Virus record (IMG/VR): IMGVR_UViG_3300045988_090863
Origin: a virus
DNA: 57,803 nucleotides
Reading direction: 5' to 3' (one strand)
The translations under genes and the position numbers were made by a program. The notes under the pieces are model-generated. The model was given only the letters and a program-made list of their open reading frames with translations, was not told where the DNA came from and did not search any database. This document shows positions 2,381-54,845 of the stretch, one piece after another (position 1 is the stretch's first letter; the number at the start of each line of letters is the position of its first letter).

Positions 2381-2805
2381 AAATCTGTAGGTATATTATA
2401 GGTTTCACAATCGGCATCTACCATAGATCTGATAGCCAGCCTATCCCTTAAGAAGTTCTCATAAGGAATTTTTGCTTCCTCTGACATGATACCAAGAACA
2501 GCACTCTGGTATTCATTCATAAGTTTGCTTTCTGTTTTGGCAGGATATTTTGCAGTAAGTAGTGTGCTGAAAATGTTGTCCGCTGTTTTAGGGTATTCAA
2601 CACGTACACTATCATACTGCCATCTTTTGCCTGTAGCTTCTTCCTCCAGCAACGTGATAGCAACACCACCATGTTCATCTTCAACAACAGATACCTCCTT
2701 GATATTGTGATTATATAGGAATGTACCTTGACCGTTGTTCAGTTCGTCAATTACTACTGGTTTTTCTTTTGCCAGTAGTTCTGTTGATAATACGTTTGTT
2801 TCCAT
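2377..2805 (-). CDS. Hypothetical acidic protein
   Basis: 142-aa ORF. Its start overlaps the last about 19 codons of the RT gene. No recognisable motif, and it does not look like an Avd four-helix protein. Confidence 0.5.
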   Translation of the reverse strand: METNVLSTELLAKEKPVVIDELNNGQGTFLYNHNIKEVSVVEDEHGGVAITLLEEEATGKRWQYDSVRVEYPKTADNIFSTLLTAKYPAKTESKLMNEYQSAVLGIMSEEAKIPYENFLRDRLAIRSMVDADCETYNIPTDL

Positions 2806-3877: not shown

Positions 3878-4020
3878 TGTGCCGTTGGTCTAAATTGGAG
3901 TTTTCGACTATGCTACTCACACCGATCTAATTCGTATTATTTTACCAGTTATCAGCGTACCGATAACCCTTGTGTGGTAAGGTAGAAGCGATCACAGTAT
4001 ATTGTTTTAAGTAAAATACC

Positions 4021-4137
4021 ACGGTATAAGCGGAACCCAATGTTCGCATTCGCATTCGAGGAGCGATTATTCGTATTCAGATAACCGAACCCCGCATTCG
4101 TACCATTATTCGCATTAGCAGACAGGAGGGCACCCCT
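4021..4137 (-). repeat. DGR template repeat (TR)
   Basis: Aligns to 4214-4327 and to 48549-48663. Every mismatch is a plus-strand T here (coding-strand A). Translation is Asn-rich (ANANNGTNAGFGYLNTNNRSSNANANIGFRLY). Confidence 0.9.
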
Positions 4138-4207: not shown

Positions 4208-5572
4208 TTAAAAACGGCACAAGCGGAACCCAATGTACGCATTCGCATTCGAGGAGCGATCATTCGCAATCAGACAACCGAACCCCGCATACGTACCATG
4301 ATACGCAGTAGCAGACAGGAGGGCACCATACCAGCCTGGAGAACTCCAGCCTGAATCATCTACACAAGTATAGAAGTAATCACAGAACCCCTTGTTACTT
4401 GAACCTCCAGTAGTATTGTCTGGGAAAGTATATCCTTTCATAGACATGGCAGAAGTAAGGATATACCCGTCTTTACGTGGTAAATCAGTCATGGCTACAT
4501 ATCCATCAGGGATAGCTGTAGAAGAATCAGAATGTGAAGTGAACTTTGTCGGATCCTCACACAGGTAAGCTACACTCTTATCAGTTCCATGGTGAACGAG
4601 AACATCATCAGCAAGCATCCAGAGATATTCAAAAGGAGCCTCCAGTCCTCTGTAAGATGTTACCTGAATAACCTTATCACCTCCAGTCCAGCCTTTGATT
4701 GTGTATGAAACCTTTCCTGTATTGTTGCCAAGTACTGCAGTAACACCACAAGGTACAAAAGGTTTGTAACCTTCCCATGTATTCCATTGACCGCCATCCA
4801 CCGTGCAACCATTACCAAGTCCACCTTGATGGAAACCATCATCAGTAAGGCTTTCATTGTATGCGTCCTGGCAGTGTAAAGATGCGTATTCAATTCTTTG
4901 CAACCAGGCTATTTCATTGTACGCCCTGTATGCACCGATATGAGTACCATGTTTACACCATGGTCTGACTGTTGCCTTTGATACAGAAGTACGAGCCATT
5001 CCGAGCTGAGAATTATATGTGCCATCTTTTGAAGCATCAGATGCACCAGAACCGCCCCTGAATTGAGCAGCATTATCTTTCAATTTCACAATACCATTTT
5101 CATCACGTGCGATCTCATTTCCGTTCCACGTTAACCAGCATCCAGATACAGCCTCACCAGTTGTAGTGTCCTGTGTTGCGAACCATGGAGAAATAGCCTT
5201 TTTCTCCATCTTAATAAACCCAGGCAAAGGGTATTCTGAGATAGCATAGATCCATTTCGTTCCAGAAATTTCAATCTTAATATAATACTCTGGCTTTTCA
5301 AGCATTACATTACCATCAGTACTATCAATGATAGCTGTTGCTCCACTTTCCTTTTTACGGCTATCGTTCTGGTGAAGATAGTATTTCACGGATCCATCCG
5401 TGTTTTCTACATATCGTCTTAATTTCGCCTGAACAGGTAGTGTTCTGTGAAGATCCAAATTACCAACTCTTGTAAGTTTGTAATCACTACTTGTAAAGTC
5501 TCCTTGAACGCCATACCACTGATCATACGGATATTGCGGTTTGGTTGATCCACTTCCTAAAATTAGTCCCAT
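4208..5572 (-). CDS. DGR target protein 1, probable receptor-binding tail protein with C-terminal CLec/FGE-type variable domain
   Basis: 454 aa, C-terminus GALLSATAYHGTYAGFGCLIANDRSSNANAYIGFRLCRF carries VR1. Located directly after the tail-tip genes. Confidence 0.88.
   Translation of the reverse strand: MGLILGSGSTKPQYPYDQWYGVQGDFTSSDYKLTRVGNLDLHRTLPVQAKLRRYVENTDGSVKYYLHQNDSRKKESGATAIIDSTDGNVMLEKPEYYIKIEISGTKWIYAISEYPLPGFIKMEKKAISPWFATQDTTTGEAVSGCWLTWNGNEIARDENGIVKLKDNAAQFRGGSGASDASKDGTYNSQLGMARTSVSKATVRPWCKHGTHIGAYRAYNEIAWLQRIEYASLHCQDAYNESLTDDGFHQGGLGNGCTVDGGQWNTWEGYKPFVPCGVTAVLGNNTGKVSYTIKGWTGGDKVIQVTSYRGLEAPFEYLWMLADDVLVHHGTDKSVAYLCEDPTKFTSHSDSSTAIPDGYVAMTDLPRKDGYILTSAMSMKGYTFPDNTTGGSSNKGFCDYFYTCVDDSGWSSPGWYGALLSATAYHGTYAGFGCLIANDRSSNANAYIGFRLCRF
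4214..4327 (-). repeat. DGR variable repeat 1 (VR1)
   Basis: 114 positions aligned to TR 4021-4134 with 11 mismatches, all at TR adenines (coding strand). Forms the last about 38 codons of the target gene. Confidence 0.9.
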
Positions 5573-5577
5573 ATTTT

Positions 5578-5871
5578 TTATTTTTTGATAGTTTCACCTG
5601 CACCCCAGTAAATTTCAAACTTTTCAAGATCTATAGCACCTGGAGATAAACTAACTATAAATCCTGGTGTCCAGTCACCAATAGGAACTGGGAAATCCCC
5701 ATCCTCTTTGTCGCAAATCAGTTTACACCTGATAAGCACATTTGTTTCCATTGTGTTCTCTTTTGGTCTAACAAAAACAGAAAATGGAGTACCAGAGAGA
5801 CTAAACCCATTATCAAGGTTTTCAATCTTTCCTTTTGATTGTATTCTTAAACTATACATTGTTGCATCCAT
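5578..5871 (-). CDS. Hypothetical protein (first gene of the DGR/lysis transcription unit)
   Basis: 97-aa ORF 5 nt upstream of target 1. Preceded by a promoter-like block at 5895-5925. Confidence 0.5.
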   Translation of the reverse strand: MDATMYSLRIQSKGKIENLDNGFSLSGTPFSVFVRPKENTMETNVLIRCKLICDKEDGDFPVPIGDWTPGFIVSLSPGAIDLEKFEIYWGAGETIKK

Positions 5872-5963: not shown

Positions 5964-6209
5964 CTACATAAATTCACCTCCTTTCAATATAATGTAAATT
6001 ACTAACAACTGTAATAGTTGCCCTATAATTCCTCCCATTATGGTAGCAATGAGATCCAGCCAATCCCATTTACCACCATATTGTTTGTCCTTAAATTCCA
6101 TTCCTACAGCTAACCCTGTTGCAAATAGAATTGTGAACAAGAAAGCACTTGGTATAGCATAAATAAAGTGCTTTGGTCTGTTACTTTCTAAAAACCATTT
6201 CATAATCAT
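5964..6209 (-). CDS. Small two-TM membrane protein (holin candidate)
   Basis: 81 aa with two hydrophobic segments (FIYAIPSAFLFTILFATGLAV and IATIMGGIIGQLLQLLVIYIIL). 4-nt overlap with the tail-tip gene. Function inferred only from size and topology. Confidence 0.35.
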   Translation of the reverse strand: MIMKWFLESNRPKHFIYAIPSAFLFTILFATGLAVGMEFKDKQYGGKWDWLDLIATIMGGIIGQLLQLLVIYIILKGGEFM

Positions 6210-9200: not shown

Positions 9201-11620
9201 GGTAGTATTCCCATACTCGGCTCATTGTTTATATATCTGTATGTGCATACTTCGTTAGATGCTTCATAACTGACTTCATCCCCCTTATAGTACACATATT
9301 TGCTGTTATATGTACCTCTATAAACTCCTATATGAGAAACATCGCCACTATCAGACAAAAGTCTAACATTATGCAATGTTAGTTGCTTTCTTGCAGTCAC
9401 ATTCCAATCTATAGAGCTTGTTGCGTCACCTATCCTGAAAGCATTTCCATCAAGATCCAAGTAACACTCACCATCAGACGTTATTATTTTACCAGTAGTA
9501 ATTGTATTACCGTTTATTCTGGTGAAACCGTATGTTGTTACAAAATCCCTGAAATTATCATCAGCCCTCAATGATGATAGAATACCTACCTGAAAATAGT
9601 AGTTGTTCGGATCTTCAACTGGTTCAAACTTCAACTGTTCACGTGTAAGATACCAAGTACCTGTTGTTCCTTTTTTAGAGCATTTTGCGAACAGATAATA
9701 ACCGCCTGATTCAGACATTGTGAACTCAGCACCAGACATATTCCACTGTTTAATCTCAGCCTCATCAATAGTCAAGTGCGCCAATATTCCAGACGTTGCA
9801 TCAAACCTGTTAGGAAGTCCATTAACATTAGGATTGAAAACTACATCAACAAGTACAAACTGCTGGCTTTTAGATCCTACAGTCAACATGTTTGTATCAA
9901 TGGAGTTTGGGCGTATATTTTCAGGATCAAAGTAACCATCAGTATCATACACCATGGTTCTCAGTTCCTCTGTTGTACGCCATCCTCTACGTGCCTTATT
10001 AAGATCCCTCAGCCTGTTACTTTCAATCACTTGCTCATGCCCTATTACATCTATAACAGTCTGATTTATTATAGATATACTTGTAGTGTCGGACAAAGTA
10101 ATGCTGTAGTCGTGCTTAAGCATCAGGTTCCTGCTTACTTTCTGGATCCTGATAGTCTTTTCAATTCCAAAGCGTTCATCCTTAACGGGTACATAATCAC
10201 CTACTTTGAACAGGCATACATTACTATCGTCTGGAGTTGTATCAAGGAAATATTTTCTGTCGAAATTAAGTACATACTGAGCCTTAGCCTGTGTACGTGG
10301 CTTAAATTCATTATACCCCTCATACCAGAGATCTTCTTCTGCATTCTGTTCGTAAGATTCAGGCAGATTTATATCTGTTATTTTATATGTGTCTCCCTCA
10401 GAAATCCTATAAGCCTCACTGTCTGTTGTAGGTATAGTTAAGCCTCTTTCATCCGTAAATGGAATTATAGTGAACAGCTTTTTAGCATGATCATAACCAT
10501 TCTTAGCAGCAAGTTCAAACTGTTGACCAGCAAGTTTTCCTGTTATGAATGTGATCTTTGCAGTCACATCTTGTATCAAGTACTTAGTTCCATTCTCATC
10601 TGATTCAGCAAGATCAAAGTCCATAGTATCGTCATAGAACGAGTTTATATCAGCACCAATAGCTGTTACAACTCCAGTTCTTTTAGGATATATATCATCA
10701 TACTGAGCACCATCCTCATCACTACCTAAAAGATCCCTCAGATCAGCATCCTCAATATATCTGTTATCATCATCATCTATACCGATCATTTCTGTTCCAG
10801 GAGCCACAACGGTACCATCATACAGCTTATGTTCTCTTTTATTTAATCTCTTAGGATATGGAAGCTGTAACCTTTCTGAATAGTTCCTATAGTCCTTTCT
10901 GATATTGGTAGTTCCACCCTCAACCCAGAGCCTTGTAATAATAGCCTTATCATCTACCTTTTGTTCTTTAAGTGTGTATAAGCCATTACCTTTGCCCCAT
11001 TCAAAATAATCATTACCGCCAGGAGGATTTATCCTTTCGCCAAACTTTCCTATATGTATTGTTCTTACACCGTCATTTTGGGTAATCTGGAACTCCAGGT
11101 TAAACTGATCCTTACTACATAACGCCTGTAAAACTTGCAAACAGTTCTGCCTTGAAAACTGAATAGTGCGAGGTTCTGTATCAGGACAATTAGCCTCATC
11201 GAATTTCCACAGCCCAGGATAGTCCCTGTTTACATTATAGATAATCACTTTTACAAAATCCTTAATGCTATAGGTGAGATCAAACGTACTTGAAGTAGAT
11301 TTTCCATTAGCATCAGTATTTCTGTATAGGCTTTTCATCAACTCATACATAACACCATAGAAAACAGCGTCATAGGTGTAGTAGTCATCAGATAGCTTTT
11401 CACGAGTTACCTTTGTCCTTATTGTGTACTCATCGCCATCAATTATGATCTTGTCACCTTTCTGAAAATCTATCAGTTCCGTTGATACGATATTCAGTTG
11501 TACCTGATCATCACCCATAAGAGTTATATTCTGTACCGCTGTTTTAACGGTACAGAAAGGTTCTCTTGACATCAACAGGATTTTTGATCCGTCTCTTTTT
11601 ATTACTTCAATTTGTCCCAT
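6206..11620 (-). CDS. Tail-tip / tail fibre protein (Tal-like N-terminus, collagen-like G-X-Y stretches, internal repeats, LamG-like domain)
   Basis: 1804 aa downstream of the Dit-like gene. Duplicated modules SYLHIKYSD..NPADYTW and W(Q/S)TT.P.WKD..YIW.R..(V/I)TYT(D/N)GTSTTT. G-X-Y runs (GEPGDQGQKGE). LamG-like FTLCFWMK...WFHVALRF. Confidence 0.75.
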   Translation of the reverse strand: MGQIEVIKRDGSKILLMSREPFCTVKTAVQNITLMGDDQVQLNIVSTELIDFQKGDKIIIDGDEYTIRTKVTREKLSDDYYTYDAVFYGVMYELMKSLYRNTDANGKSTSSTFDLTYSIKDFVKVIIYNVNRDYPGLWKFDEANCPDTEPRTIQFSRQNCLQVLQALCSKDQFNLEFQITQNDGVRTIHIGKFGERINPPGGNDYFEWGKGNGLYTLKEQKVDDKAIITRLWVEGGTTNIRKDYRNYSERLQLPYPKRLNKREHKLYDGTVVAPGTEMIGIDDDDNRYIEDADLRDLLGSDEDGAQYDDIYPKRTGVVTAIGADINSFYDDTMDFDLAESDENGTKYLIQDVTAKITFITGKLAGQQFELAAKNGYDHAKKLFTIIPFTDERGLTIPTTDSEAYRISEGDTYKITDINLPESYEQNAEEDLWYEGYNEFKPRTQAKAQYVLNFDRKYFLDTTPDDSNVCLFKVGDYVPVKDERFGIEKTIRIQKVSRNLMLKHDYSITLSDTTSISIINQTVIDVIGHEQVIESNRLRDLNKARRGWRTTEELRTMVYDTDGYFDPENIRPNSIDTNMLTVGSKSQQFVLVDVVFNPNVNGLPNRFDATSGILAHLTIDEAEIKQWNMSGAEFTMSESGGYYLFAKCSKKGTTGTWYLTREQLKFEPVEDPNNYYFQVGILSSLRADDNFRDFVTTYGFTRINGNTITTGKIITSDGECYLDLDGNAFRIGDATSSIDWNVTARKQLTLHNVRLLSDSGDVSHIGVYRGTYNSKYVYYKGDEVSYEASNEVCTYRYINNEPSMGILPTNSTYWQLIAKGSPGEKGNSIFYTYNDSQEKPNTPTGAGNTNGWHTESTESVVWMSIKSAADINSGSWGSPFRVRGADGTSITIKGSKDDVSQLPVVDNKPGDAYIIGENLYIWDGSGWTNVGKIKGEDGKSSYLHIKYSDDGGKTFTDGNGEVPGRWMGVLVNQSQSDSDNPADYTWNDTKGEDGTPGKPGEDGKTSYLHIKYSDNGGLSFTANNGETPGAYIGQYTDFEKKDSDNPADYTWSRIKGDPGTGGTDAESGVYYEYRYAKNGSTSTPPAIDLSSPNPAGWSTEMPKPGAFEYVWCTMAKKSGIVDRTSFNYPISETDYQNRGELRIMDQTGEYMATYNKPECIVKDGNRYAFDLSYEKECRIPYDLPFGKNFTLCFWMKTDQKYVKWMLNGYNGREYVENTINTTPGVWFHVALRFSDKTVTVFINGVQYNYGSVNEKIDGFAIYDDNMFGSSSMFDDVRLLDSALPVSDIEKIMQGTADELIQHWSTPIRVNPYDGIDGKPGVGVSTTDVEYAQSTSNSVAPTSGWQTTAPAWKDGYYIWSRTKVTYTDGTSTTTKAACITGGKGSTGSPGNGVKTIVEQYYLSSSATSLLNGSWSTTRPTWKDKWYIWTRSVITYTNGTSTTTAPICVTGSKGDKGEPGDQGQKGESPATVFRGVYDSSKTYYGTKYRLDVVKYNGVYYVARIDAGTFTGVIPTNTSKWNNFGAQFESIATDLLLAENANIAGWVFKNNRLEAQDGSVYLDGVNGVVRVKGTMQLSTGFSGAFSDVNIFYLPSVTSTKYISMGQDADDIGKVCRLYNSSPFGGADYMIGAYSFTAEDGMSWSQLDYYAVVKPQEVVEMTCFEEPGSTSTSKKGRWDITSRFSHEDFYKSGAKGRYARILAIGRINGTNSGASLSGTYYDGRSLSSVFSVSRLGTGKYRVYCSSCPSGYTVMATGYGAIWGGSNPVKACLYSKTSSYFDVLLSDDASANDGSCEFVIFAPDWDYNMK

Positions 11621-43696: not shown

Positions 43697-44503
43697 TCAA
43701 TTCTGTTTTTTATATTCTCTAATTGCTTTACTTAAACTTTCTGTTTTATCCAGGAGGTTAGCCATCTTATCAATATCAATCATAACCTCACCATCCATCC
43801 ACGCCCAGACCTTTCTAAGAGCTTCAGATATTGCTTTCGCCTCTTTGCTATCTTTCAGGGAATTAAGTACCTCCTTATTTGTCGCTGTAGCCCTGCCATT
43901 TTCCTGAGCTGTCTGAACTGCTGTTTTTGCAGCCTTTACCTGTTCTTTCTCGCTGTCATAGCTGTTTGCTATCTCTTTTGCTGCCTTAACCGACAACTCG
44001 CCTTTTACGATCTTGTCTTGAATGTATTGAGGCAAATCCAGAAGTGAAAGGCATTTGCTCACATAAGCCGTTGACTTTTTGAACTTATCAGCGATCTCAA
44101 CCTGAGAATAGCCAAATTCCTCTTTGAACCTACGAAACATGATAGCACATTCATATTCCGTAAATCTCTTACCCTCATTACGCATCATCTGTTCGATATA
44201 AAGATCCTCCAGTGAAGCATCCCTGGGAGCCTTAAGAGCTTTGATATATTGTATGTCGGCACCCTCTTTTATTGCTTGCATTGTAGCACGGTAACGCCTT
44301 TCTCCATCAACCAGCTTATATTTTTCAATGCCATCCTCTTTGAAAGGAATAACCGTTACAGGATTGAGAACCCCTTTTGCTTTGATCTGTTCCTTAAGCT
44401 CATCCAGATCAAAATCCATACGGACGTTGAAATTATCAACAACAACTATATTTCGTGGATCTATAAGAAATATATCAGTCCTTTTTGTCACATTCGTTTC
44501 CAT
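43697..44503 (-). CDS. ParB-like DNA-binding protein
   Basis: ParB N-terminal box KLVDGERRYRA followed by an HTH-like GYSQVEIADKFKKSTAYVSKCL. Confidence 0.75.
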   Translation of the reverse strand: METNVTKRTDIFLIDPRNIVVVDNFNVRMDFDLDELKEQIKAKGVLNPVTVIPFKEDGIEKYKLVDGERRYRATMQAIKEGADIQYIKALKAPRDASLEDLYIEQMMRNEGKRFTEYECAIMFRRFKEEFGYSQVEIADKFKKSTAYVSKCLSLLDLPQYIQDKIVKGELSVKAAKEIANSYDSEKEQVKAAKTAVQTAQENGRATATNKEVLNSLKDSKEAKAISEALRKVWAWMDGEVMIDIDKMANLLDKTESLSKAIREYKKQN

Positions 44504-44648
44504 CTTTCGTATAATAGTTTTTATAATATTTACATGGTTTCTTTCTCGCTGTTATTTTCTTTTGTAGCTTACAACAGTACATCTGCGCACACTGAGGATT
44601 AGACCAGAAGTATTCGCAATCGCTACAGTGTCTAATTTCTTCACTCAT
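44475..44648 (-). CDS. Small Cys-rich protein (57 aa)
   Basis: MSEEIRHCSDCEYFW...CCK...C. The ATG overlaps the stop of the upstream small ORF (ATGAGTGA). The longer ORF-track start at 44735 runs out of frame through that ORF. Confidence 0.4.
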   Translation of the reverse strand: MSEEIRHCSDCEYFWSNPQCAQMYCCKLQKKITARKKPCKYYKNYYTKDGNECDKKD

Positions 44649-44814
44649 CACTATCAAAGAATTGCTCATTTTCATCCATAAAATACTCATAGGCTTCTTC
44701 ACAATAAGAACCCTCACACAAAGAATCACAACCATGATCTATTTCTCCATTTTTCCAAGGGCAAAAATCGCAAAGATCATCACCTAAAAGTTCTTTTGCT
44801 TCTTCCAAATCCAT
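44641..44814 (-). CDS. Small acidic Cys-rich protein (57 aa), below the ORF-track cutoff
   Basis: Read by hand: MDLEEAKELLGDDLCDFCPWKNGEIDHGCDSLCEGSYCEEAYEYFMDENEQFFDSDE. The ATG lies 1 nt after the upstream stop. Confidence 0.4.
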   Translation of the reverse strand: MDLEEAKELLGDDLCDFCPWKNGEIDHGCDSLCEGSYCEEAYEYFMDENEQFFDSDE

Positions 44815-44815
44815 A

Positions 44816-45271
44816 TCAATACCTAAAATCAGTGAAGTGAATTATAACGCCATCAAATACATTTCCCTTATTACAGCCAAAAAACCATTCAGTAAAATCT
44901 TCAACACTCAAACCGTCATTCTTTGCCAGATCATAAGCGGAAACGTGTTTTCCATCAACCCAACATTGTGGAGCTTCATCAGTGCTGCTATATGTCATTG
45001 TTATCTTCTGCAGTCCTATTTTATCATACCTGGCAAACTCTCTCTGTTCAGAATTATACGGTCTGCCAGTCCACTCTCTAACACTCAGATATTTCTTACT
45101 TTTAGAAATATCATTGTATCTTTTATCCCATACATCTTTAGCGTTGTATCGTATGGTATGTTTCTTTATTCCATTTTTCAGCTTTTGTTCAAAGCCTGTT
45201 TTTTCACCAGCTCTGGAATGTGTTACTGGGAAAACCTTACATAAGGTCAGTATTACTTTTTTCTTATCCAT
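44816..45271 (-). CDS. Hypothetical protein
   Basis: 151-aa ORF. Confidence 0.5.
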   Translation of the reverse strand: MDKKKVILTLCKVFPVTHSRAGEKTGFEQKLKNGIKKHTIRYNAKDVWDKRYNDISKSKKYLSVREWTGRPYNSEQREFARYDKIGLQKITMTYSSTDEAPQCWVDGKHVSAYDLAKNDGLSVEDFTEWFFGCNKGNVFDGVIIHFTDFRY

Positions 45272-45303
45272 GATCCGAAAATTTATGTTGCAATTTACCT
45301 GGT

Positions 45304-46101
45304 TTATTTTCTTCTACTACCTCCGTGTAGTTCTATTACATTGAATGATTTGAAACGATCAACCAAACGCCCCTCAAATCGCTCCTTAAGATCCTTAACA
45401 GATAGGTTGCTTGTGATATGATACTTTTTTCCTAACTGTTGGTAAATCTCATATCTTGCAAAAAGAAACTCATCTGTTACCTGTGTAAGTGTAGTTCCAT
45501 AGCTCTTTTGATTTTCAGTCATAAGCCCAAGGTCATTCAAACACACATTGAAAGGAGATCCCTCAAAGCTGTCTTTATTTGCCCCCTCATTGTATGTATA
45601 TTTATCTATGTGCCCATTCAGCTTATAATAGTTCATTAGCTGTGTAGAACTTATATTCTGAAAGCTGTTTTCATTTCGTGTCATTTTAAGATAATCAGAA
45701 AAGATCTGCATTATCATAGTCTTTCCTGTTCCTGGCTCACCGACAAGTAAAATGTTCTTGTGAATTTTATAGTGTTCGTTTGGAAATACTTCCTCAGCAC
45801 GTTTACACCCATTGAAATAGTAAAGCAGAAAACGTAGTACATTTCTGTTATGATCATCTATATCAAATTGTGAAAACTCTCTGAACATATAACTATTACC
45901 AATCTCTTTAATCATTGCGGAATGCAAAGAGTACTGAGATTCATCGGTCATGTCATACTTAAAACCTCTGAGAATAGTCTTTCGGTGTTTCCATATCTCC
46001 ATGTTCGCCTGTTGACTGGTTAGCATATTGCGTTCCTCCTGGAACAGCTTTATTGCCTGAATTATTTGTTCCTCCGTGAGTTTGCATCCATTGAGTTCCA
46101 T
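45304..46101 (-). CDS. AAA+ ATPase, DnaC/IstB-like helicase loader
   Basis: Walker A LLVGEPGTGKT. Follows the replication-organiser gene. The annotated start overlaps the upstream gene by 143 nt, so the true start may be an internal ATG (for example 45951). Confidence 0.62.
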   Translation of the reverse strand: MELNGCKLTEEQIIQAIKLFQEERNMLTSQQANMEIWKHRKTILRGFKYDMTDESQYSLHSAMIKEIGNSYMFREFSQFDIDDHNRNVLRFLLYYFNGCKRAEEVFPNEHYKIHKNILLVGEPGTGKTMIMQIFSDYLKMTRNENSFQNISSTQLMNYYKLNGHIDKYTYNEGANKDSFEGSPFNVCLNDLGLMTENQKSYGTTLTQVTDEFLFARYEIYQQLGKKYHITSNLSVKDLKERFEGRLVDRFKSFNVIELHGGSRRK

Positions 46102-46828
46102 TTTTATTTACCTCCTCATAATATCTATCAACTACCCAATTAAGAATAGTTCTATAGTCTGATTTATATTTTTTACCTTTTGATCCTTTGTAATTATCAA
46201 GGATTTCTATCATTCTTTTAGCAGCAGGCTCAGTATATTTATCAACCAGCTTTTTGTACTCATCATCTGTAAGAGTTACAAATTCAGCATAGTTCTTTTT
46301 CTTAACTTTTTCTGTTTTCTTCTGTTGCTGGTCTGTAGGTGGTGGCTGTTGTGGATCATTATCAAACAGATCAGGAACCTCTGGTATTGCAGTCGGAGCG
46401 TTTATATTAGCCGATAACTTTTCTTTTGTTTTATTACCTCCCTTTTTACCAGCCTCACGCCTTTTTGAGCTTATTTCATTAAGCCTTACCATCCTCCTAC
46501 TGTAGTATGCACCATCCTCCCTGATCGCACAAAGTCCAGAACTACAAAGAATGTCTATCCAACTGCTACCTCCATCTGAATCATATCCTACAAGTCTTAA
46601 GATCTCATCTTTTGTATAGATTTCCTGGTTAGGTTTAAGCATAACGCCACGTTCTGCGCTCTCCCACATATAGCACAACATATCTATCCACATACCTCTA
46701 ACACATGGAGCCAGGGATCTTACTACTGGATCCTTAAGCCAGATAGAAGTATTGAAAGGCATACTTGGAATAGCTGTTTTTTTCGCCATATTAGAGTTTT
46801 TATAAGTGGGGTGAGCAAAAGCCCACAC
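45959..46828 (-). CDS. Replication initiation / replisome organiser protein
   Basis: 289 aa. The N-terminal conserved block (WLKDPVVRSLAPCVRGMWIDMLCYMW) is DUF1376-like and the C-terminal part is DnaD-like. Located upstream of the helicase loader. Confidence 0.45.
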   Translation of the reverse strand: MWAFAHPTYKNSNMAKKTAIPSMPFNTSIWLKDPVVRSLAPCVRGMWIDMLCYMWESAERGVMLKPNQEIYTKDEILRLVGYDSDGGSSWIDILCSSGLCAIREDGAYYSRRMVRLNEISSKRREAGKKGGNKTKEKLSANINAPTAIPEVPDLFDNDPQQPPPTDQQQKKTEKVKKKNYAEFVTLTDDEYKKLVDKYTEPAAKRMIEILDNYKGSKGKKYKSDYRTILNWVVDRYYEEVNKNGTQWMQTHGGTNNSGNKAVPGGTQYANQSTGEHGDMETPKDYSQRF

Positions 46829-46843
46829 CCACGCTGTTAATGC

Positions 46844-47605
46844 TTATACTTCCAAAACAGGTATATCTGTAGCGATCTTACGGATCTTTTCAATCACATC
46901 ATCCAAACATCTGTCTCTGTATTCCTCACAAAGCTCATTTGCGCCTGGAGAAACGAGCTGTAGAAGTACTTCTCCATTGCTCAGGTAGTGATCAAATTCT
47001 ACTTCAATATTTGTCTTAGCTGTTCCCTTGAAAATAGGAATATTCACAGTGAATGATTTTGGCAGATTGCTTTCTACCTGGCTACGGTACACCTCAGCCA
47101 TGGAGCCAGATGGATCACGCTGTTTCTGGATCTCAGTTTTTGCTTTTGCCGTAAAGTTCTTAAGGGTAGAAACGAGAACCATGCACTTTTCCTTGTCCTC
47201 AAATACACCTCTGTTCAATCTCAGGAATTGCCCCAGTTTTGACGGAACCCAGCCACTTTCAGCATTGTTAATTCCGAACTTCTCAAACACATCAGAAAAT
47301 TCAACAGTACCTTTGATAATGCCTCTTGAATACTCATCATTTTCATTCACAGTAAGAGTGATTTCCATCTTTTCACGGTTAACCACCAGTGTAGCACGTT
47401 TCTGATCAATGGTATCAATTCTCTTTTCCAGCCAATCGAAAGGAGTTGAAATAACACCTGAAATGTTTGTTTTGATAGGAGCCTTAGTCGGCAGACTTTC
47501 TACAGCCTTAGCAGCTTCACCTGTTCTAAACTCAATCTGAATAGGTTTTTCACCTGTGTAGTGTTCAATGTTTACTGTCAAACCTTTTTCTTTCAATTCT
47601 TCCAT
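46844..47605 (-). CDS. Hypothetical protein
   Basis: 253-aa ORF. Confidence 0.5.
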   Translation of the reverse strand: MEELKEKGLTVNIEHYTGEKPIQIEFRTGEAAKAVESLPTKAPIKTNISGVISTPFDWLEKRIDTIDQKRATLVVNREKMEITLTVNENDEYSRGIIKGTVEFSDVFEKFGINNAESGWVPSKLGQFLRLNRGVFEDKEKCMVLVSTLKNFTAKAKTEIQKQRDPSGSMAEVYRSQVESNLPKSFTVNIPIFKGTAKTNIEVEFDHYLSNGEVLLQLVSPGANELCEEYRDRCLDDVIEKIRKIATDIPVLEV

Positions 47606-47631
47606 TTTGAATAAAATTTTAGCGTTAATAA

Positions 47632-48075
47632 TTAGTTATCTGTTCCTGTTTTTTCAGCAGAAGTTTCACGGATCATCCTGAACACATTCTTTTGCTTTTC
47701 CTCTTGTGTCATAGGACGTGCATCAAGCAAATGTCCCTCTGGGCTATAGAATCCAACCATACCCTCATCTTCAAACACGAATTTGAAACAGTCTCCCTTA
47801 ACCCAGTCACCACCAGCCTTAAGCTCATCACGTAATTTAACGATCCTTTCTTGCAGTGGTTTGATACGCCCTTTGTAGTCAGCCCTGATTTCAGCAAGTT
47901 CCTGTTCCAGATCCGCAATCTGAATTGATACATTTGCCAGTGATGCACGCCTCTCATTGATTTCCTGCTGGTCAAACCTCCTGGTATAACTTCTCTCTAC
48001 AATCTGATCACAACTATCACGCAAGATCTGTTCTCGCTGTTCGATAGGAGTGTCTGCTAACATAATGCCTTTCAT
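47632..48075 (-). CDS. Hypothetical coiled-coil protein
   Basis: 147-aa ORF. Confidence 0.5.
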   Translation of the reverse strand: MKGIMLADTPIEQREQILRDSCDQIVERSYTRRFDQQEINERRASLANVSIQIADLEQELAEIRADYKGRIKPLQERIVKLRDELKAGGDWVKGDCFKFVFEDEGMVGFYSPEGHLLDARPMTQEEKQKNVFRMIRETSAEKTGTDN

Positions 48076-48446
48076 CCTACAATAAGTTTAATTGTTTGTA
48101 AATCAAAATCTATATGAAAGTGATATTTGTTGAGAATGACAAATAACAAAACCATAATGCTTATTACACCATCAATGATACGCCATACTATATGACGTTT
48201 TGAGAACAGGCTTAAAATCAGAATCAGAATGAAACATACCCATTGCGAACTCATCAAGCCAACAATACATGCAAGGAAATAAATCACATTTACTACAACA
48301 TAGGTTGCGAAAGTTGCACTCATATCCTGTACATTTGACAAATCTCTGTATTTATTCACAGAAGCATGTATTTTCTTCACAGCAAACAGAGATAGGATCT
48401 CAAACGCCAGGAAAAAGGACACCAGTAAGTAAAATACATGTTCCAT
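48072..48446 (-). CDS. Multi-pass membrane protein (about 4 TM)
   Basis: 124 aa, mostly hydrophobic. Its start codon lies 1 nt after the stop of DGR target 2. Confidence 0.5.
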   Translation of the reverse strand: MEHVFYLLVSFFLAFEILSLFAVKKIHASVNKYRDLSNVQDMSATFATYVVVNVIYFLACIVGLMSSQWVCFILILILSLFSKRHIVWRIIDGVISIMVLLFVILNKYHFHIDFDLQTIKLIVG

Positions 48447-48447
48447 A

Positions 48448-49026
48448 TTACTTTATCCTTTCTCCAGTTGTAAAGTTGTAAGACAGGTATTCAGCCCACA
48501 ATTCTATAAACTGAGCACCGAAATACTGAGCCTTTTCCTCTGTTTCCTGGCACAAGCGGAACCCAACGTACGCACTCGCAAGCGAGGAGCGACTATTCGT
48601 ACTCAGACAACCGAACCCCGCAGACGTACCATGAGTCGCAGAAGCAGACAGGAGGGCACCCCTTTGAACTTCATTAAGTCTTTCAATCTCATCCTTAGTG
48701 TATAGCGCAAAGAACGGGTACCAATAGCATTTTTCTCCTTTTGGATCTGGCATAGGATCAAAGTTTTTACCCCATAAAGCCTTACTTACAGTCTCCAGCT
48801 TCATCAATGCTACAACATGTTTTGGCAAGTTCATATCAGGCTTAATAGTAGGTACACCAAGAGCCTCACAAGCATCCTCATAAGACTTGATAGTCTTATA
48901 ATTATCCAAAGTAGGAGCTTCACGCTTGCAAAACAAAGCAGCCAGGACTTCTTTCATTTCATCAGTTTTAGCAGCCTGGAAAGCAGCCTTAACATCATTT
49001 TCTGTTACTTCAATTACTTTGTTCAT
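48448..49026 (-). CDS. DGR target protein 2 (small, non-structural context)
   Basis: 192 aa. GALLSASATHGTSAGFGCLSTNSRSSLASAYVGFRLC is encoded by VR2, and 33 further codons follow. No signal peptide or TM seen. Confidence 0.85.
   Translation of the reverse strand: MNKVIEVTENDVKAAFQAAKTDEMKEVLAALFCKREAPTLDNYKTIKSYEDACEALGVPTIKPDMNLPKHVVALMKLETVSKALWGKNFDPMPDPKGEKCYWYPFFALYTKDEIERLNEVQRGALLSASATHGTSAGFGCLSTNSRSSLASAYVGFRLCQETEEKAQYFGAQFIELWAEYLSYNFTTGERIK
48549..48663 (-). repeat. DGR variable repeat 2 (VR2), remote from the TR
   Basis: 115 positions aligned to TR 4023-4137 with 16 mismatches, all at plus-strand T of the TR (coding-strand A). Confidence 0.9.
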
Positions 49027-49112
49027 CTTTCAATTTTTTTAATTTGGTTACTAATTTCTTTGATAATCTTATTGCATTTCCAACCCTTGTACTATGGTTA
49101 GGTGGAATGTTC

Positions 49113-49589
49113 TCAATCAACACAGGAATCAATCTGATCAATTCCGATACTACAGCATTTGGTATTCTTTTCATTTGTTTTCCAGTAGCGATCAGGATCT
49201 GGTATCTCTATTGAAAGGTATTCCCTGGCATACTCTCTTAGCTTTTCGCAATAAGTTGAGAATGTAACAGTGTCCATTGTTGCAGTAGAACCAGGGAACT
49301 CTATTATTTCACCTGTATGCTTGTTTACAACTTTATCTGCTGTCATTTGAGACTTGAAAAACTCATGTACCTGTTCAACAGAAACGAACTCCCAACCAGC
49401 ATCCAGTAAAGCGTCAAGCAGCATAGGATATATACACCCCCACAACCATCCATTTTGATCATTAGAACGAGGCTTACGGACTTTCTTAACTTCCACCCGA
49501 TATATTCCATCACAAACAGAGCAGAACCAGTTATAAAGCGGCTTAAGATCGAACAGCCCATTCTTTTTTTCTACCAGAACCTTAGACAT
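49113..49589 (-). CDS. Hypothetical protein, possibly NinB/Orf-like recombination mediator
   Basis: KPRSNDQNGWLWG resembles the RS..QN...W motif of the NinB family. Weak. Confidence 0.3.
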   Translation of the reverse strand: MSKVLVEKKNGLFDLKPLYNWFCSVCDGIYRVEVKKVRKPRSNDQNGWLWGCIYPMLLDALLDAGWEFVSVEQVHEFFKSQMTADKVVNKHTGEIIEFPGSTATMDTVTFSTYCEKLREYAREYLSIEIPDPDRYWKTNEKNTKCCSIGIDQIDSCVD

Positions 49590-49590
49590 A

Positions 49591-50328
49591 TCAAATCCTG
49601 TTTATATTGATTACAAGACCTGGGTTAGCGGCATACACTACTTTTCCTGTTAATCTTTCAATTTCCGATACAAATAGCCTTTCATCAGAGTTGTTATCCG
49701 ACATGTGAAGTAAGACAATATTCATACAGGATGATAGATCACATTCACTCAGGTAATTTTTACACGTATTAAGCTCCATGTGAGATACCATTAAGCGATC
49801 TTTTTGTGATTTCAAAGTTCTGCCAGCGTTAATAGCATCCATCAGCTTCACCATAGAATAATTACACTCAATCAAAACATGCGATAAACCGCCAAACATA
49901 TAATCACATCTACAGCTATCAGTAAGAAATAGGATCTTTCCGCAATCAGGATGATCTATGTGATAGCCAACACAGGGTACATCATGGTTTGCCTCAAATG
50001 GCAATATTTTGAAGTTTCCAAGTTTATACCCTTTACCAGGCACAACAGGAATAGAACGTGTTTCGCTGTATATTCCTTTTGCAGTCCATACCTCTGGTAA
50101 AGCCAGCGTATAGAAGCCATTATCAACCATTGATTTTATGAATTTGGCATGATCGTTATGCTGGTGAGTGATAAGGCAGCCCACCACTTTCCTGATATTG
50201 AAATCAAGAGCCTTTTTCACCTCAGCAAAGCGTATTCCAGCTTCAATGATTAAAGCCTCTTTTCCATTGTCAAGAATGTAACAATTACCGCTGGATGAGC
50301 TACCTAACACTTTCAATTCCATAATCAA
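49591..50328 (-). CDS. Metallo-beta-lactamase-fold hydrolase (probable nuclease partner of RecT)
   Basis: HQHNDH (HxHxDH) motif. 4-nt overlap with recT. Confidence 0.7.
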   Translation of the reverse strand: MIMELKVLGSSSSGNCYILDNGKEALIIEAGIRFAEVKKALDFNIRKVVGCLITHQHNDHAKFIKSMVDNGFYTLALPEVWTAKGIYSETRSIPVVPGKGYKLGNFKILPFEANHDVPCVGYHIDHPDCGKILFLTDSCRCDYMFGGLSHVLIECNYSMVKLMDAINAGRTLKSQKDRLMVSHMELNTCKNYLSECDLSSCMNIVLLHMSDNNSDERLFVSEIERLTGKVVYAANPGLVININRI

Positions 50329-51299
50329 TAACCTGGATCATCATCATTATTAGCTGGCGCAACACTGGAATGAGATACGTCCTCATAAGCTACAGATTCA
50401 GCATCTATCACCTTAACAGGCTGATCATCCACCTGTAGTACATTATCATCATAAGTTTCACCAGCAAAATCATTAGCAATAGCATTCTGCATTTCGATAG
50501 ACAAGTAGCCATATTTACTTAGTAAAATTCGGATAACAGTCTTAATCGCCATACCGTGAAAGTTACCCATCCATCCTACAGTATTACTATCTGGCATAAC
50601 AGGAGCACTTGCAAGTGCTATGAGACTTTCCACTGTAGTGTCTCTTTTAAGCCCCTTAGAGTACTTCTTAGCGTGCGTTGCCATCTGTTCAACCGTCATG
50701 TACAAAGTCTTAGAAAAGCCATTGAGAAGTTCAAAATAGCAGAAGTAACCAACAACCTTATCAGACAGCTTTTCTCCATCGAAAGCAATCTCACCAGTCA
50801 ACTTATTGACCTTTCTTAGTTCACCCTCATATACAGCATCAGCATTCAGAGTTCTGTATTGACCTGTACGCATAGCAAGCTGTATATATCCTTTGTACCC
50901 CATTTGGAATGTTGGCACCATAACTTTGTCATAGATAGGCTTTCGTGTATTCGGATCAATAACCACATTTCCATTCTGATCAATTCTTTTAACTGACAAG
51001 TTGTATGGAATGATATAGGCATATCCAAGAGCCTTGTTTATAGGCAAATGCAATACAGCAGCTTTCAACGCCTCACTAACAACTGTTTTAGGATCGCAAA
51101 GCTGGAGATTACTATCTCCATTATACAAGTCAATTACGGAAGCAACGAATGTTCCAGAGTTTTTACCTAAAGCATTCTTGAACTGAGCCTGAACACTATC
51201 TGCATTGAGAATACCTTTCAGGACATCTACCTTTTTGGGCTGTTTAGCAACCGCCCCGCCATTTGCAGCCACATGGACTGCGGTTGATTGTGTAGTCAT
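50325..51299 (-). CDS. recT: RecT-family single-strand annealing protein
   Basis: 324 aa with RecT-like blocks (CDPKTVVSEALKAAVLHLPINKALGYAYIIPY, GYKGYIQLAMRTGQY). Confidence 0.78.
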   Translation of the reverse strand: MTTQSTAVHVAANGGAVAKQPKKVDVLKGILNADSVQAQFKNALGKNSGTFVASVIDLYNGDSNLQLCDPKTVVSEALKAAVLHLPINKALGYAYIIPYNLSVKRIDQNGNVVIDPNTRKPIYDKVMVPTFQMGYKGYIQLAMRTGQYRTLNADAVYEGELRKVNKLTGEIAFDGEKLSDKVVGYFCYFELLNGFSKTLYMTVEQMATHAKKYSKGLKRDTTVESLIALASAPVMPDSNTVGWMGNFHGMAIKTVIRILLSKYGYLSIEMQNAIANDFAGETYDDNVLQVDDQPVKVIDAESVAYEDVSHSSVAPANNDDDPGY

Positions 51300-51305
51300 A
51301 TCTTA

Positions 51306-53267
51306 TTAGTTTACTGTTAGTTTATCTTTTGAAACGACCAAATTTATCACCTGAGATACAGTAGGAATAATCTTGTTAACTGATTCGCTGTTGTCAATAA
51401 AGATCGGTGCTGAAACTCCCTTGTATCGGCATATTGCGTTGATAATATCAAGACCAGCGTTAACCTTACCAGCAGTATTTACATCAGGATATGGAGTTCC
51501 GTTCACAGTACAAACGCATGTAAGTTTTTCACCACCATTAAGCTGTTCACTAACGAATGAGAAGTTAACCACCTCAAACATACCGTTGATCTTTTCCATG
51601 AGCTTTGCATCCTTATCCTTTTGGAAGGAGATCGCTGTAAATTCCCATTTTTCCAGATCAGCAAGAGCCTGGTTATTCTGGATTCTCTTTTCCTCCAGTT
51701 CCTCAATCTCCTTTTGAGATCGTTCTATCAGATCACGCTTAGCAAGTCTTTTATACAACTCCTGGATATTCTCATCCAAAGATGATTTAGCAAAACGAAG
51801 ATCGCTAACATCTACAGGCTTAGATTCAACATTAAGCTGATTGTTAAGATCTGCTATTTCATTATTCAAGCTGATACATGTAGGATCATTCTTGATCATT
51901 GCATCAACATCAGGAGTTTCAGGGATATTAGCTTTCTGAACTTCGATTTCTCTCTCAATCAGTACGATTCTATCCTCTGATTCCTTGATTTTAGCGAGAA
52001 TACCATCACGCTCAGCCTCTTTCCTTTTTTTCAATTCAACCAGTGAAAAACCTTTGTCCTTATTTTCTTTTAATCTTTTAGCCTTATTCTGATTGAAATT
52101 AGCAAGCAGCTCATTCTGCTTTGCCTCAATATCATCAACCTCTAACTGGCGTTTACATGTTGGGCAAACAAAGGCACCCTCTGGGTATTGTATTGTTTCT
52201 GCATTGATCTGCCTGTATTCATTTCTCAGAACAGACAGATTTTCTTCGATTCTCTGTATTTCTGATTCACAGTTTGCCAGTGAACTACGATTCAGTTCAA
52301 GTTCCCTGGTTTCTGTTTTATGGTTATACTCCAGATCTTGTAATTTCATCATAACCTTATTTCTCTCAGATCCAGCAGCAGCCTTGATCTCATTCTGACG
52401 GCTAACCAGGGACATCCTTTTGTCTCCTATTGTTCTTTGTATTCCAAGTTTACGCTGGCTTTCCTGTTCGTTAATCTTAGACTTATCAGCGATCTGATTA
52501 TCTATCTCAGAAACACGTTGTTTCTTCTGTTGCAGTTCAACTTCAAGAGCTTCCCAATCTTCTGATTCTGGCATCAGTTTTCTGGCTGTATCTATTTGTG
52601 ACGGAATAACAGCAAGAACATCTTTACATGCCTTTTTCTTAGCAGCTACTTCTTTGGAGAACTGGGAAAGACTTCTACCAGACAACTGAGACAAAAGTTC
52701 AATATATTCAGGCTTAATAGCAGCCACTTCATCATCAGATATACCGCCAGCCATATCAAGCAGAAGTTCTTTTTGTACGTCTGCCTTAAGAGAAGTGAAA
52801 TAGAAAGGATTTGTTACCATCCTGAAAAGATCCTCAGTAAGAATAGCATCTACTTCACTTTCATACTCTTTCTTTGTCGCCAGCTTAACATCGTTAAGAT
52901 AAAATTCAGTCTCATGGTTCTTTAGAGTTTCCTCAGTAGTACCCCTGGGCTTAACCCATTTCTCAACATAGTTACGCTGGAATTTCATTTCCTTTCCGTC
53001 AACACTAATTACACCAGCAACATAATGCTCCAGGCGTAGGATAGGTCTCTTTGTAGCTGGATCAATGGTTTTGATATTGAAATTACTGTCAGACCTGCCT
53101 GTACTATCTTTTCCGAAAAACAGCCATGTAAAAGCGTCAAAAATAGTAGTCTTACCTGTTCCATTGTCCCCACTGATTACAGTTACCCGATCTGAGAAGT
53201 TTACTTCCAGGTTTCTTACACCCTTGAAATTTACCAGGTGTAACGATTTTAGTTTAATTTCTCTCAT
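51306..53267 (-). CDS. Rad50/SbcC-like AAA ATPase with coiled coil and CxxC zinc hook
   Basis: Walker A GDNGTGKTT, long coiled-coil middle region with CPTCKRQL, C-terminal signature region. Confidence 0.75.
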   Translation of the reverse strand: MREIKLKSLHLVNFKGVRNLEVNFSDRVTVISGDNGTGKTTIFDAFTWLFFGKDSTGRSDSNFNIKTIDPATKRPILRLEHYVAGVISVDGKEMKFQRNYVEKWVKPRGTTEETLKNHETEFYLNDVKLATKKEYESEVDAILTEDLFRMVTNPFYFTSLKADVQKELLLDMAGGISDDEVAAIKPEYIELLSQLSGRSLSQFSKEVAAKKKACKDVLAVIPSQIDTARKLMPESEDWEALEVELQQKKQRVSEIDNQIADKSKINEQESQRKLGIQRTIGDKRMSLVSRQNEIKAAAGSERNKVMMKLQDLEYNHKTETRELELNRSSLANCESEIQRIEENLSVLRNEYRQINAETIQYPEGAFVCPTCKRQLEVDDIEAKQNELLANFNQNKAKRLKENKDKGFSLVELKKRKEAERDGILAKIKESEDRIVLIEREIEVQKANIPETPDVDAMIKNDPTCISLNNEIADLNNQLNVESKPVDVSDLRFAKSSLDENIQELYKRLAKRDLIERSQKEIEELEEKRIQNNQALADLEKWEFTAISFQKDKDAKLMEKINGMFEVVNFSFVSEQLNGGEKLTCVCTVNGTPYPDVNTAGKVNAGLDIINAICRYKGVSAPIFIDNSESVNKIIPTVSQVINLVVSKDKLTVN

Positions 53268-53268
53268 G

Positions 53269-53553
53269 TTACTTATTGATTATTGAATTGATTTTTTCTG
53301 ATTTGTCAGCAGCTAAAAGATCTGCCATTGAATAGAGTACTTTGGATCTACTACTACTTCCAGATCTCATAGGTGAAACAGTACCATTATACACCCACCT
53401 TTTCACTCTGCTTTCCTGGAATAGCCTGTAAGCCTCACGCTGTGATATAAGATCATCACCTGGCTTTGTCTGCTTTATGTAGTTAGCAGCCCCAAGCTCA
53501 GCCATTTCCTTACAGATATTCTTTATTTCGTATAGTTCCAAAGTTATTGCCAT
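53269..53553 (-). CDS. Hypothetical protein (possible small DNA-binding protein)
   Basis: 94-aa ORF. Confidence 0.45.
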   Translation of the reverse strand: MAITLELYEIKNICKEMAELGAANYIKQTKPGDDLISQREAYRLFQESRVKRWVYNGTVSPMRSGSSSRSKVLYSMADLLAADKSEKINSIINK

Positions 53554-53554
53554 A

Positions 53555-53812
53555 TTATTTATTCCTTATTCTTTTGAAATATGATCTAACACTCTCTGTT
53601 CCATACATATCATCCGTATAGAATACATAAGAAAGAATTAAACAGAAAAAAGCAGTGAAATAATGCCACCAGGCATGGAAAAAGATTGCTCCAATTAGAG
53701 CGAAAATACCAAAGGCAAATGATATTACCCCTTGTACTAAATTCATTAAAGTTTCTGATTTCATCGGTGTTGCATTTTTAGATGTTAAACAATTCATTTT
53801 CTGGAACTCCAA
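53555..53812 (-). CDS. Small two-TM membrane protein
   Basis: 85 aa with two hydrophobic segments. Confidence 0.45.
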   Translation of the reverse strand: MEFQKMNCLTSKNATPMKSETLMNLVQGVISFAFGIFALIGAIFFHAWWHYFTAFFCLILSYVFYTDDMYGTESVRSYFKRIRNK

Positions 53813-53996
53813 GTTCTTTAGAGATTATGGAGATTTTGAGTGCATCAGGCTTTTGTGTGCCTGCCAGCCAGCATCTAACAGTAGTAGGGTGTACCTTGCA
53901 GATTTCTGCCATCCTCCTTACAAAGTCAGCTTTCGGTGCTTCAACCTTTCGGTTAGGTAGTCGGTCATAAATTTTTCTGAATGTACTTTTTTTCAT
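53778..53996 (-). CDS. Cro-like HTH regulator
   Basis: 72 aa with HTH-like MAEICKVHPTTVRCWLAG. Divergent from the CI-like gene. Confidence 0.55.
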   Translation of the reverse strand: MKKSTFRKIYDRLPNRKVEAPKADFVRRMAEICKVHPTTVRCWLAGTQKPDALKISIISKELGVPENELFNI

Positions 53997-54036
53997 TTTT
54001 TACTCGGTTTAATACGCTCCGCAAACACATTTTAGC

Positions 54037-54077
54037 TATATTTGCACCATTACTATTATTATCATGTTGCAAATATA
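54037..54077. promoter_or_regulatory. Immunity-region inverted repeat TATATTTGCA-N21-TGCAAATATA (each arm contains a TAnnTTTG -7 box, one per strand)
   Basis: Read directly. 54037-54046 is the exact reverse complement of 54068-54077. Confidence 0.5.
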
Positions 54078-54127
54078 CAGAATTTAATTCTAATAAAACA
54101 AGAATTTACGGAGTTATTTTCAGAATA

Positions 54128-54139
54128 TTTTGCGCAAAA
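54128..54139. promoter_or_regulatory. Perfect 12-bp palindrome TTTTGCGCAAAA in the CI leader
   Basis: Read directly. Shares the TTTGC/GCAAA half-sites with the nine-copy palindrome array. Confidence 0.4.
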
Positions 54140-54182
54140 AATGTAACACTTTGATTTTCAATTAGAAATAAACTCGGTAAAA

Positions 54183-54845
54183 ATGAGCAAAACAAAAGAT
54201 AGATTACTGGAGTTTCTGAAATACAAGAAGCTCGGACAACAGAAATTTGAAATATCTATAGGGATGAGTAACGGATGGGCAAACAAGGTCGGTGACAACA
54301 TACGTGAAACCACACTAAATAAGATAAAAGAAGTTTATCCAGAATTAAACATAGCATGGCTTAAGGCTGGTATTGGCTCAATGCTTATCAATGGAGATAA
54401 TGAGGTAACTTTAGAAACTCCAGAAGATGATAACCAGGAAACGACTGCAAAGCTCGTACCCCTTTTGCCGATAGCAGCACAAGGTGGAAGTCTTAACGAT
54501 TTTGTTGTATCAGTAAAAGATAGTGATTGTGAAAAGGTAGTATCTCCGATAAAAGGTGCTCAGTTTGCTATGCCTGTAAGTGGTGATAGTATGGCTCCAG
54601 AATATCCTAACGGATCACAGATCTTTATCAAACGTATAAATGAAAAGGCATTTATAGAGTGGGGTAAGGTGTATGTACTTGACACTTGCAACGGAACAGT
54701 TATAAAGATATTGGTTCCGTCTGAAAAAGATGGATATGTTCGCTGTTTATCAATCAATAAAGATCCTATCTTTGCACCATTTGATGTTTCCTGGAGTGAC
54801 GTTTATGGAGTGTACAGAGTTCTATTATGTATGTCAGTAAAATAA
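54183..54845 (+). CDS. CI/LexA-like repressor (N-terminal HTH, C-terminal S24 peptidase)
   Basis: GDSMAPEYPNGSQIFIKR (S24 Ser region) and a later Lys region. N-terminal CI-type HTH ending AWLKAGIG. Confidence 0.85.
   Translation: MSKTKDRLLEFLKYKKLGQQKFEISIGMSNGWANKVGDNIRETTLNKIKEVYPELNIAWLKAGIGSMLINGDNEVTLETPEDDNQETTAKLVPLLPIAAQGGSLNDFVVSVKDSDCEKVVSPIKGAQFAMPVSGDSMAPEYPNGSQIFIKRINEKAFIEWGKVYVLDTCNGTVIKILVPSEKDGYVRCLSINKDPIFAPFDVSWSDVYGVYRVLLCMSVK

Follow-up and report, generated by a model that had tools for sequence, protein, structure and literature searches.

Diversity-generating retroelements (DGRs) with two variable repeats (VRs) were described in Quimbyviruses by Benler et al. (2021; PMC8008677): one VR lies in a structural protein, and the second in a remote gene surrounded by genes for nucleases, methyltransferases and tRNA ligases. 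This second VR was called unprecedented, and its gene product was already speculated to be non-structural and to act in counter-defense. Dahlman et al. (2025; PMC12629997) identified, by BLAST with the template repeat (TR), four species of Bacteroidota prophage that have a further VR distal to the RT cassette, and read this VR as part of the phage-host arms race; for LoVEphage they cite Benler et al. 2021 together with the description of that phage. Roux et al. (2021; PMC8144416) stated that their own DGR survey was unable to detect remote targets. Here we analyze the IMG/VR virus record IMGVR_UViG_3300045988_090863 (57,803 nt, the whole of which is called the window below), where a single DGR, with one reverse transcriptase (RT) and one TR, serves both a VR in a tail-module protein at the cassette (VR1) and a remote VR (VR2) in the gene for a 192-amino-acid (aa) protein. 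A first reading of this DNA (the original prediction) had proposed the second target and implied that a remote target was novel; the novelty was overstated, as the Quimbyviruses, a homolog in LoVEphage and the four prophage species precede it.

One template repeat and two variable repeats

A blastn search of the whole window with the TR found three copies only: the TR itself, VR1 and VR2 (Table 1). The ungapped alignment of the TR to VR2 covers 115 positions and has 16 mismatches, every one of them at an adenine of the TR coding strand (T on the plus strand), which would be expected by chance with a probability of ~8.5e-11, given 27 A in 115 nt. The computed alignment thus reproduces the counts of the original prediction, with no non-adenine mismatch among the 16; what did not stand is the treatment of the two 3'-most mismatches as products of mutagenesis, because these are fixed in all copies. 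VR1 differs from the TR at 11 of 112 aligned positions, again exclusively at TR adenines (11/11), and its mismatches largely differ from those of VR2. Such mismatches at many differing adenines agree with the proposal that the two VRs were diversified independently from one TR. The TR itself has 26 of its 27 adenines at codon positions 1-2, and contains 10 AAY codons.

The two fixed differences (TR positions 4025 and 4027) read GCTTATACC in the TR and GCTTGTGCC in both VRs, which carry two distinguishing G's there, in all 27 population copies, and an analogous pair is found in Bacteroides phage Versailles and in LoVEphage. Judged from these sequences, the pair is a fixed marker of the type that distinguishes the initiation of mutagenic homing (IMH) site from IMH*. 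Together with the 18-nt end common to both VRs, the two differences are what one would expect if an IMH/IMH* pair determined the direction of transfer.

VR2 is 13.1 kb from the TR across the circular junction. Positions 1-55 of the window are identical to 57749-57803, i.e. the ends overlap as in a circular assembly, so that the true genome is ~57,748 bp and the distance originally given across the junction is correct. All the genes concerned (RT, TR and both targets) are on the minus strand. The RT is a single open reading frame (ORF) with both the DGR-type [LIV]GxxxSQ motif and YxDD, and the public collection has an identical protein in 172 indexed blocks. The VR1 target gene is directly downstream of a gene for an 1804-aa tail protein.

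Table 1. Features of the DGR and of the remote target locus in the window
Feature	Coordinates	Strand	Evidence or remark
VR2 target, 192 aa, acidic, soluble, phrog_11581 (function not known)	48448..49026	-	PHROGs 4.8e-67
VR2, remote variable repeat, residues 122-159 of the 192-aa protein	48549..48663	-	TR match
VR2 3' end, IMH-like, 18 nt, TTGGGTTCCGCTTGTGCC	48549..48566	-	identical to VR1 4216-4233
TR, encodes RGALLSANANNGTNAGFGYLNTNNRSSNANANIGFRLY	4023..4137	-	145 nt upstream of RT start
TR 3' end, IMH*-like, TTGGGTTCCGCTTATACC	4023..4040	-	two fixed positions differ from both VRs
VR1 target, 454-aa tail-module protein, phrog_5302 'tail protein'	4208..5572	-	PHROGs 1.7e-115
VR1, C-terminus of the 454-aa protein	4216..4330	-	TR-aligned over 4216-4327
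DGR RT, 376 aa	2747..3877	-	Pfam RVT_1 1.1e-18; IGNYTSQ at residue 209, YMDD at 241
NinB/Orf-like recombination mediator, conserved upstream neighbor	49113..49589	-	phrog_72 7.4e-21
Gene for 124-aa protein with four transmembrane segments (4-TM), context only	48072..48446	-	start 1 nt after VR2-target stop

Population variation and concerted evolution of VR2

An exact search of IMG/VR with 35-nt flanks retrieved a single locus, and protein-guided retrieval was used instead. The resulting VR2 set adds 12 genomes to the window, of which ten come from different samples and were reached through an identical 124-aa neighbor gene. Among these 13 genomes, VR2 is variable at 24 of the 27 TR-adenine positions and at 8 of the 88 other positions, between flanks that are 95.8% identical on average; no copy has a stop codon in the target ORF. 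As a control, the TR has 0 variable columns among 14 genomes with identical RT. VR1 in the same 14 genomes is variable at 24/27 adenine positions and 5/88 others, so the two targets have been diversified to the same extent.

The protein variation has the same footprint. Residues 1-100 and 155-192 are essentially invariant in the 43 closest homologs (at least 89% identity), and the 12 hypervariable columns of their alignment (129, 131, 132, 135, 140, 142, 144, 145, 149, 151, 153 and 154) are exactly those whose TR codons contain A. Two observations on individual residues may be added. The TR codon for residue 153 is AAC, and most population copies have TAC (Tyr) there, in VR1 and VR2 alike; the same residue is favored in both targets. 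Three database variants in the 43-homolog alignment (P0004, P0010 and P0042) have 2-aa indels in the VR or a part of it scrambled; changes of this kind are not expected from DGR homing and are probably assembly artefacts of mixed VR populations.

Seven IMG/VR contigs carry the small gene together with the RT locus, and in all seven the VR of the small gene matches its own TR, with mismatches at adenines only (the single exception is one C in one contig). Compared with the window TR, the TRs of these seven lineages carry between 3 and 15 non-adenine differences, and at 74 of 74 lineage-specific non-adenine sites VR1 and VR2 both carry the base of their own TR. Such concerted evolution directly shows TR information to have gone on overwriting VR2 since the lineages split, and transfer is unidirectional and adenine-specific, from one TR to two VRs. 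The population and seven-lineage data support the proposal that a single TR serves both. Confinement of variation to adenines, taken with concerted evolution, shows that VR2 is active and no fossil.

A fossil VR2 would be the remnant of past homing or recombination, or a tolerated off-target, that is no longer diversified or selected. The homology between the two targets does end exactly at the VR borders, as in a grafted segment, and the VR lacks confident structure in both AlphaFold2 models described below. We regard this explanation as extremely improbable, in view of variation at TR adenines equal to that of VR1, the adoption of lineage-specific TR changes at every site, an IMH-like end whose conservation extends from the window to Versailles and LoVEphage, and an ORF that is intact everywhere. 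The family alignment, moreover, runs through the segment equivalent to the VR and on through the C-terminal helices, even for members at 30-40% identity. Homology limited to the VR is also the expected outcome of continual overwriting from one TR, whether the scaffolds are related or not.

The 192-aa target protein

The protein is hydrophilic with an isoelectric point of 5.55, and sequence analysis agrees with the original prediction that it has no signal peptide and no TM or other hydrophobic segment; neither was found in the 150 listed family representatives. Its homologs number 2920 in the database; the family is broad, with 483 clusters at 50% identity (E <=0.001), and the listed members are mostly of 150-220 aa. 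VR2 is not at the extreme C-terminus of its target: as had been claimed, translation of the ORF continues for 33 residues (QETEEKAQYF...) before the stop, and this tail is conserved in the family.

The protein resembles the tail-module target only in the VR. The VR2 protein segment is 74% identical to the tail-module VR, while the match of the 192-aa protein to the 'tail protein' family phrog_5302 covers residues 119-160 only, i.e. the VR, and both BLASTP and profile-profile comparison (hhalign) with the VR1 target family found homology over 38-39 VR residues only. Pfam, NCBIfam and PADLOC yielded nothing for the 192-aa protein, for p147 and p253 (encoded downstream of it), for the 4-TM protein or for the ORFs considered below as Avd candidates. 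Pfam likewise gave no informative domain for 60 family members and 10 longer members with N-terminal extensions.

The homolog of the VR2 target in Versailles, WAK79127.1 (L001:4998-5579), is labelled 'tail protein' in the public record. We rejected this label as evidence of a structural role, since the phrog_5302 match is to the VR only; because the family matches there (residues 119-160), the name 'tail protein' probably arose from the shared VR. A distant relative, IMGVR_UViG_3300025718_000015, has two adjacent phrog_11581-like genes at 3001-3889.

Gene neighborhood

The phage is of gut Bacteroides type and temperate, encoding an integrase and a divergent S24-type repressor. Its sole nucleotide-level relative in the phage collection is Versailles, at ~74% identity, and a nucleotide search with window positions 47000-50500 found no match among GenBank phages. 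After the repressor, a minus-strand operon encodes in order an SbcC-like protein, RecT, a metallo-beta-lactamase (MBL) nuclease, the NinB/Orf-like protein, the VR2 target, p147, p253 and a replisome organizer; it continues with DnaC-like, ParB and Dam (the methylase lies ~5 kb downstream of the target) and onward to terminase. The order RecT-MBL-NinB-[target]-p147-p253-replisome organizer recurs in 22 of 24 related viral loci, which bears out the placement of the target within a recombination/replication block. By analogy with lambdoid phages, this gene order suggests that the target is early and non-structural. A scan of 44000-54500 for sigma-70 promoters and terminators gave results at chance level, with a promoter model that may not suit the host group.

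The conserved slot bears on the possibility that the small protein is a virion component, i.e. a further receptor-binding or adhesion module, such as a tail or capsid accessory, whose gene lies apart from the structural ones, so that the DGR would diversify two adsorption surfaces. Phage DGR targets that are understood bind receptors in nearly all cases, and in every case worked out by experiment (summarized in PMC8144416 and PMC10743442), and the tentaclin phages provide an example of one TR with two unrelated targets, each of them a proposed binder on the particle (PMC10743442). The high identity of VR2 to the tail-module VR would fit such a role as well, and the absence of a signal peptide does not discriminate, because virion proteins need none. 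We nevertheless think a place in the virion unlikely, given the fixed recombination/replisome position far from the tail genes, the location of the LoVEphage homolog among methyltransferase and repair genes, the absence of homology to tail proteins outside the VR (39 columns by hhalign) and the lack of any recognizable attachment domain.

The 4-TM gene offers another setting for the protein, in the lysogen or at the envelope, where the two products might act together, e.g. in superinfection exclusion. That this gene abuts the target was correctly noted in the original prediction, and the spacing suggests translational coupling in this genome. As a conserved partner, however, it fails: it is present in the window lineage and one other locus (L022) only, while the diversified target is retained in the 20 of 22 syntenic loci, and in Versailles, that lack it. 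The target gene also follows the repressor/early switch region, on the strand of the lytic operon, a position from which expression in the lysogen would not be expected. A lysogen or envelope role thus seems very unlikely to us. The 4-TM protein has no family match in any library, and its functional coupling to the VR2 target was rejected, the gene being a lineage-specific insertion that is not conserved.

Two further observations concern genes near the targets. Several public contigs have an ORF call of ~54 aa that separates NinB from the VR2 target and overlaps the target start (the 49000-49170(-) region in the window, L029:8605-8769, and WAK79126.1 in Versailles); it is a candidate gene. 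Just upstream of the DGR cassette, the 1804-aa tail-module protein (6206-11620(-)) has a weak Laminin_G_3/concanavalin-like match and a counterpart in Versailles.

Proposed mechanism and function

The explanation that we favor, and consider probable as a whole, is a single DGR with two VRs whose 192-aa product is a non-exported intracellular binder. By analogy with the Bordetella-type system of BPP-1, the TR transcript would be reverse transcribed by the RT into adenine-mutagenized cDNA, which would home to and replace a VR that bears an IMH, wherever it is located; since the cDNA is diffusible, position should not matter. The genomic context suggests that the 192-aa product would be made alongside the early recombination/replication genes and would not be exported. 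Its 12 hypervariable residues may then form a ligand-binding surface directed at a variable target inside the infected cell, most likely a protein of host defense or of a rival phage. This last function is a guess, one that has also been made in the published literature. A bolder version, which we offer tentatively and would not expect to hold, is that the protein is an intracellular DGR-diversified binder on a non-CLec scaffold, which has only the 38-residue VR module in common with the tail protein and would neutralize variable proteins of host defense or of rival phages, providing an antibody-like counter-defense repertoire across a clade of gut Bacteroidota phages.

Several results weigh against an active DGR with an intracellular binder as its second target. 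The first group concerns the fold. AlphaFold2 was run twice on the VR2 target, with alignments of 60 and 135 sequences, and both models have a confident, mostly helical scaffold (mean predicted local distance difference test score, pLDDT, of 80.6 and 77.3), including two confident helices after VR2 (pLDDT 91-94). VR residues 124-152 fall below pLDDT 50 in both. Foldseek comparison of both models with the PDB found nothing at E <5, and comparison with BFVD found uncharacterised phage homologs only. The C-type lectin (CLec) fold, the usual DGR scaffold and the one that the original prediction had suggested looking for, was not recovered by AlphaFold2, Foldseek or Pfam, and PDB searches by sequence and by profile returned chance-level matches only, both for the 192-aa protein and its family and for the VR1 target and its family. 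The motifs YEDACxALG, WYPxFxL and GFRLC resemble what we take to be CLec elements. On these models, a CLec fold of the VR2 target is neither confirmed nor excluded.

The second group concerns the DGR and its surroundings. Pfam, NCBIfam and PADLOC gave no Avd-like match for the small ORFs on either side of the RT and the target; many DGRs have an Avd, though not all. When the regions 3' of VR1 and VR2 in the window and in Versailles were folded, no significant hairpin or cruciform appeared downstream of either repeat (z-scores of -0.55 to +0.58 versus shuffles). The variation described above was compared between assembled genomes of different samples, not within one population. Finally, the immediate neighbors of the target are recombination and replication genes rather than obvious counter-defense genes, and no PADLOC match passes E 0.001. 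Only two ORFs are candidates for Avd, both conserved and without known function at the edges of the cassette: one of 142 aa (2377-2805(-), phrog_11557) that overlaps the 3' end of the RT gene, and one of 97 aa (5578-5871(-), phrog_22750) upstream of the VR1 target.

Many abundant gut Bacteroidota phages retain a hypervariable soluble protein in their recombination/replication operon, and the identical neighbor gene is indexed in 325 blocks of the collection. Diversification of the VR2 target as heavy as that of the tail target suggests that phages put targeted hypermutation to a second use, as yet unexplained. A cultured host is named for Versailles (Bacteroides caecimuris), and members of LoVEphage could be induced from isolates in culture (PMC12629997), so the function should be experimentally accessible.

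Comparison with known DGRs

The system resembles the DGR of BPP-1 in its adenine-specific transfer from TR to VR, AAY-rich TR, 3' asymmetry of the IMH type and RT GxxxSQ motif. The only target in BPP-1 is Mtd, the protein at the tip of the tail fibre, whose CLec fold has been solved, whereas the window has two targets; the VR ends the Mtd protein, whereas residues follow VR2 here; and the Avd and the hairpin/cruciform downstream of the VR in BPP-1 are not detectable in the window. Closer in layout are the tentaclin phages (PMC10743442), where one TR likewise serves two targets without sequence similarity outside the VR. Both tentaclin targets, however, are inside the cassette, are predicted to have CLec domains and have a proposed virion function, while the second target in the window is remote and of unrecognised fold.

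The closest counterparts are phages with a distal VR. The species of Dahlman et al. (PMC12629997) are, like the window phage, temperate gut Bacteroidota phages; that paper has no analysis of the target family. LoVEphage (MW660583) has one RT and one TR with two VRs, in a tail-module protein beside the cassette and in a remote small protein, QVQ57199.1, which is a full-length homolog of the 192-aa protein at ~36-39% identity. The VR of this small protein differs from the LoVEphage TR by 19 A mismatches and 1 G mismatch. QVQ57199.1 is surrounded by methyltransferases, an RtcB tRNA ligase and a repair nuclease, as opposed to the RecT/NinB/replisome-organizer block of the window, and by this context it appears to match the distal Quimbyvirus target of Benler et al. 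LoVEphage is of a different lineage (~71 kb, versus ~57.7 kb for the window phage), and the Quimbyvirus RT is in three overlapping frames (PMC8008677) in contrast to the single ORF here.

Versailles (ON453897.1, 58,097 bp) has the same layout of TR, VR1 and VR2, with VR2 in a syntenic 193-aa gene whose product is 65% identical to the window protein. The window phage is a Versailles-like (~57-kb) addition to the published kind of dual-target DGR. What the present analysis adds is that the remote target belongs to one conserved protein family common to LoVEphage and the Versailles-like phages, that it resembles the tail target in the VR alone, that its fold is not recognisably CLec, and that its slot in the recombination module is conserved.

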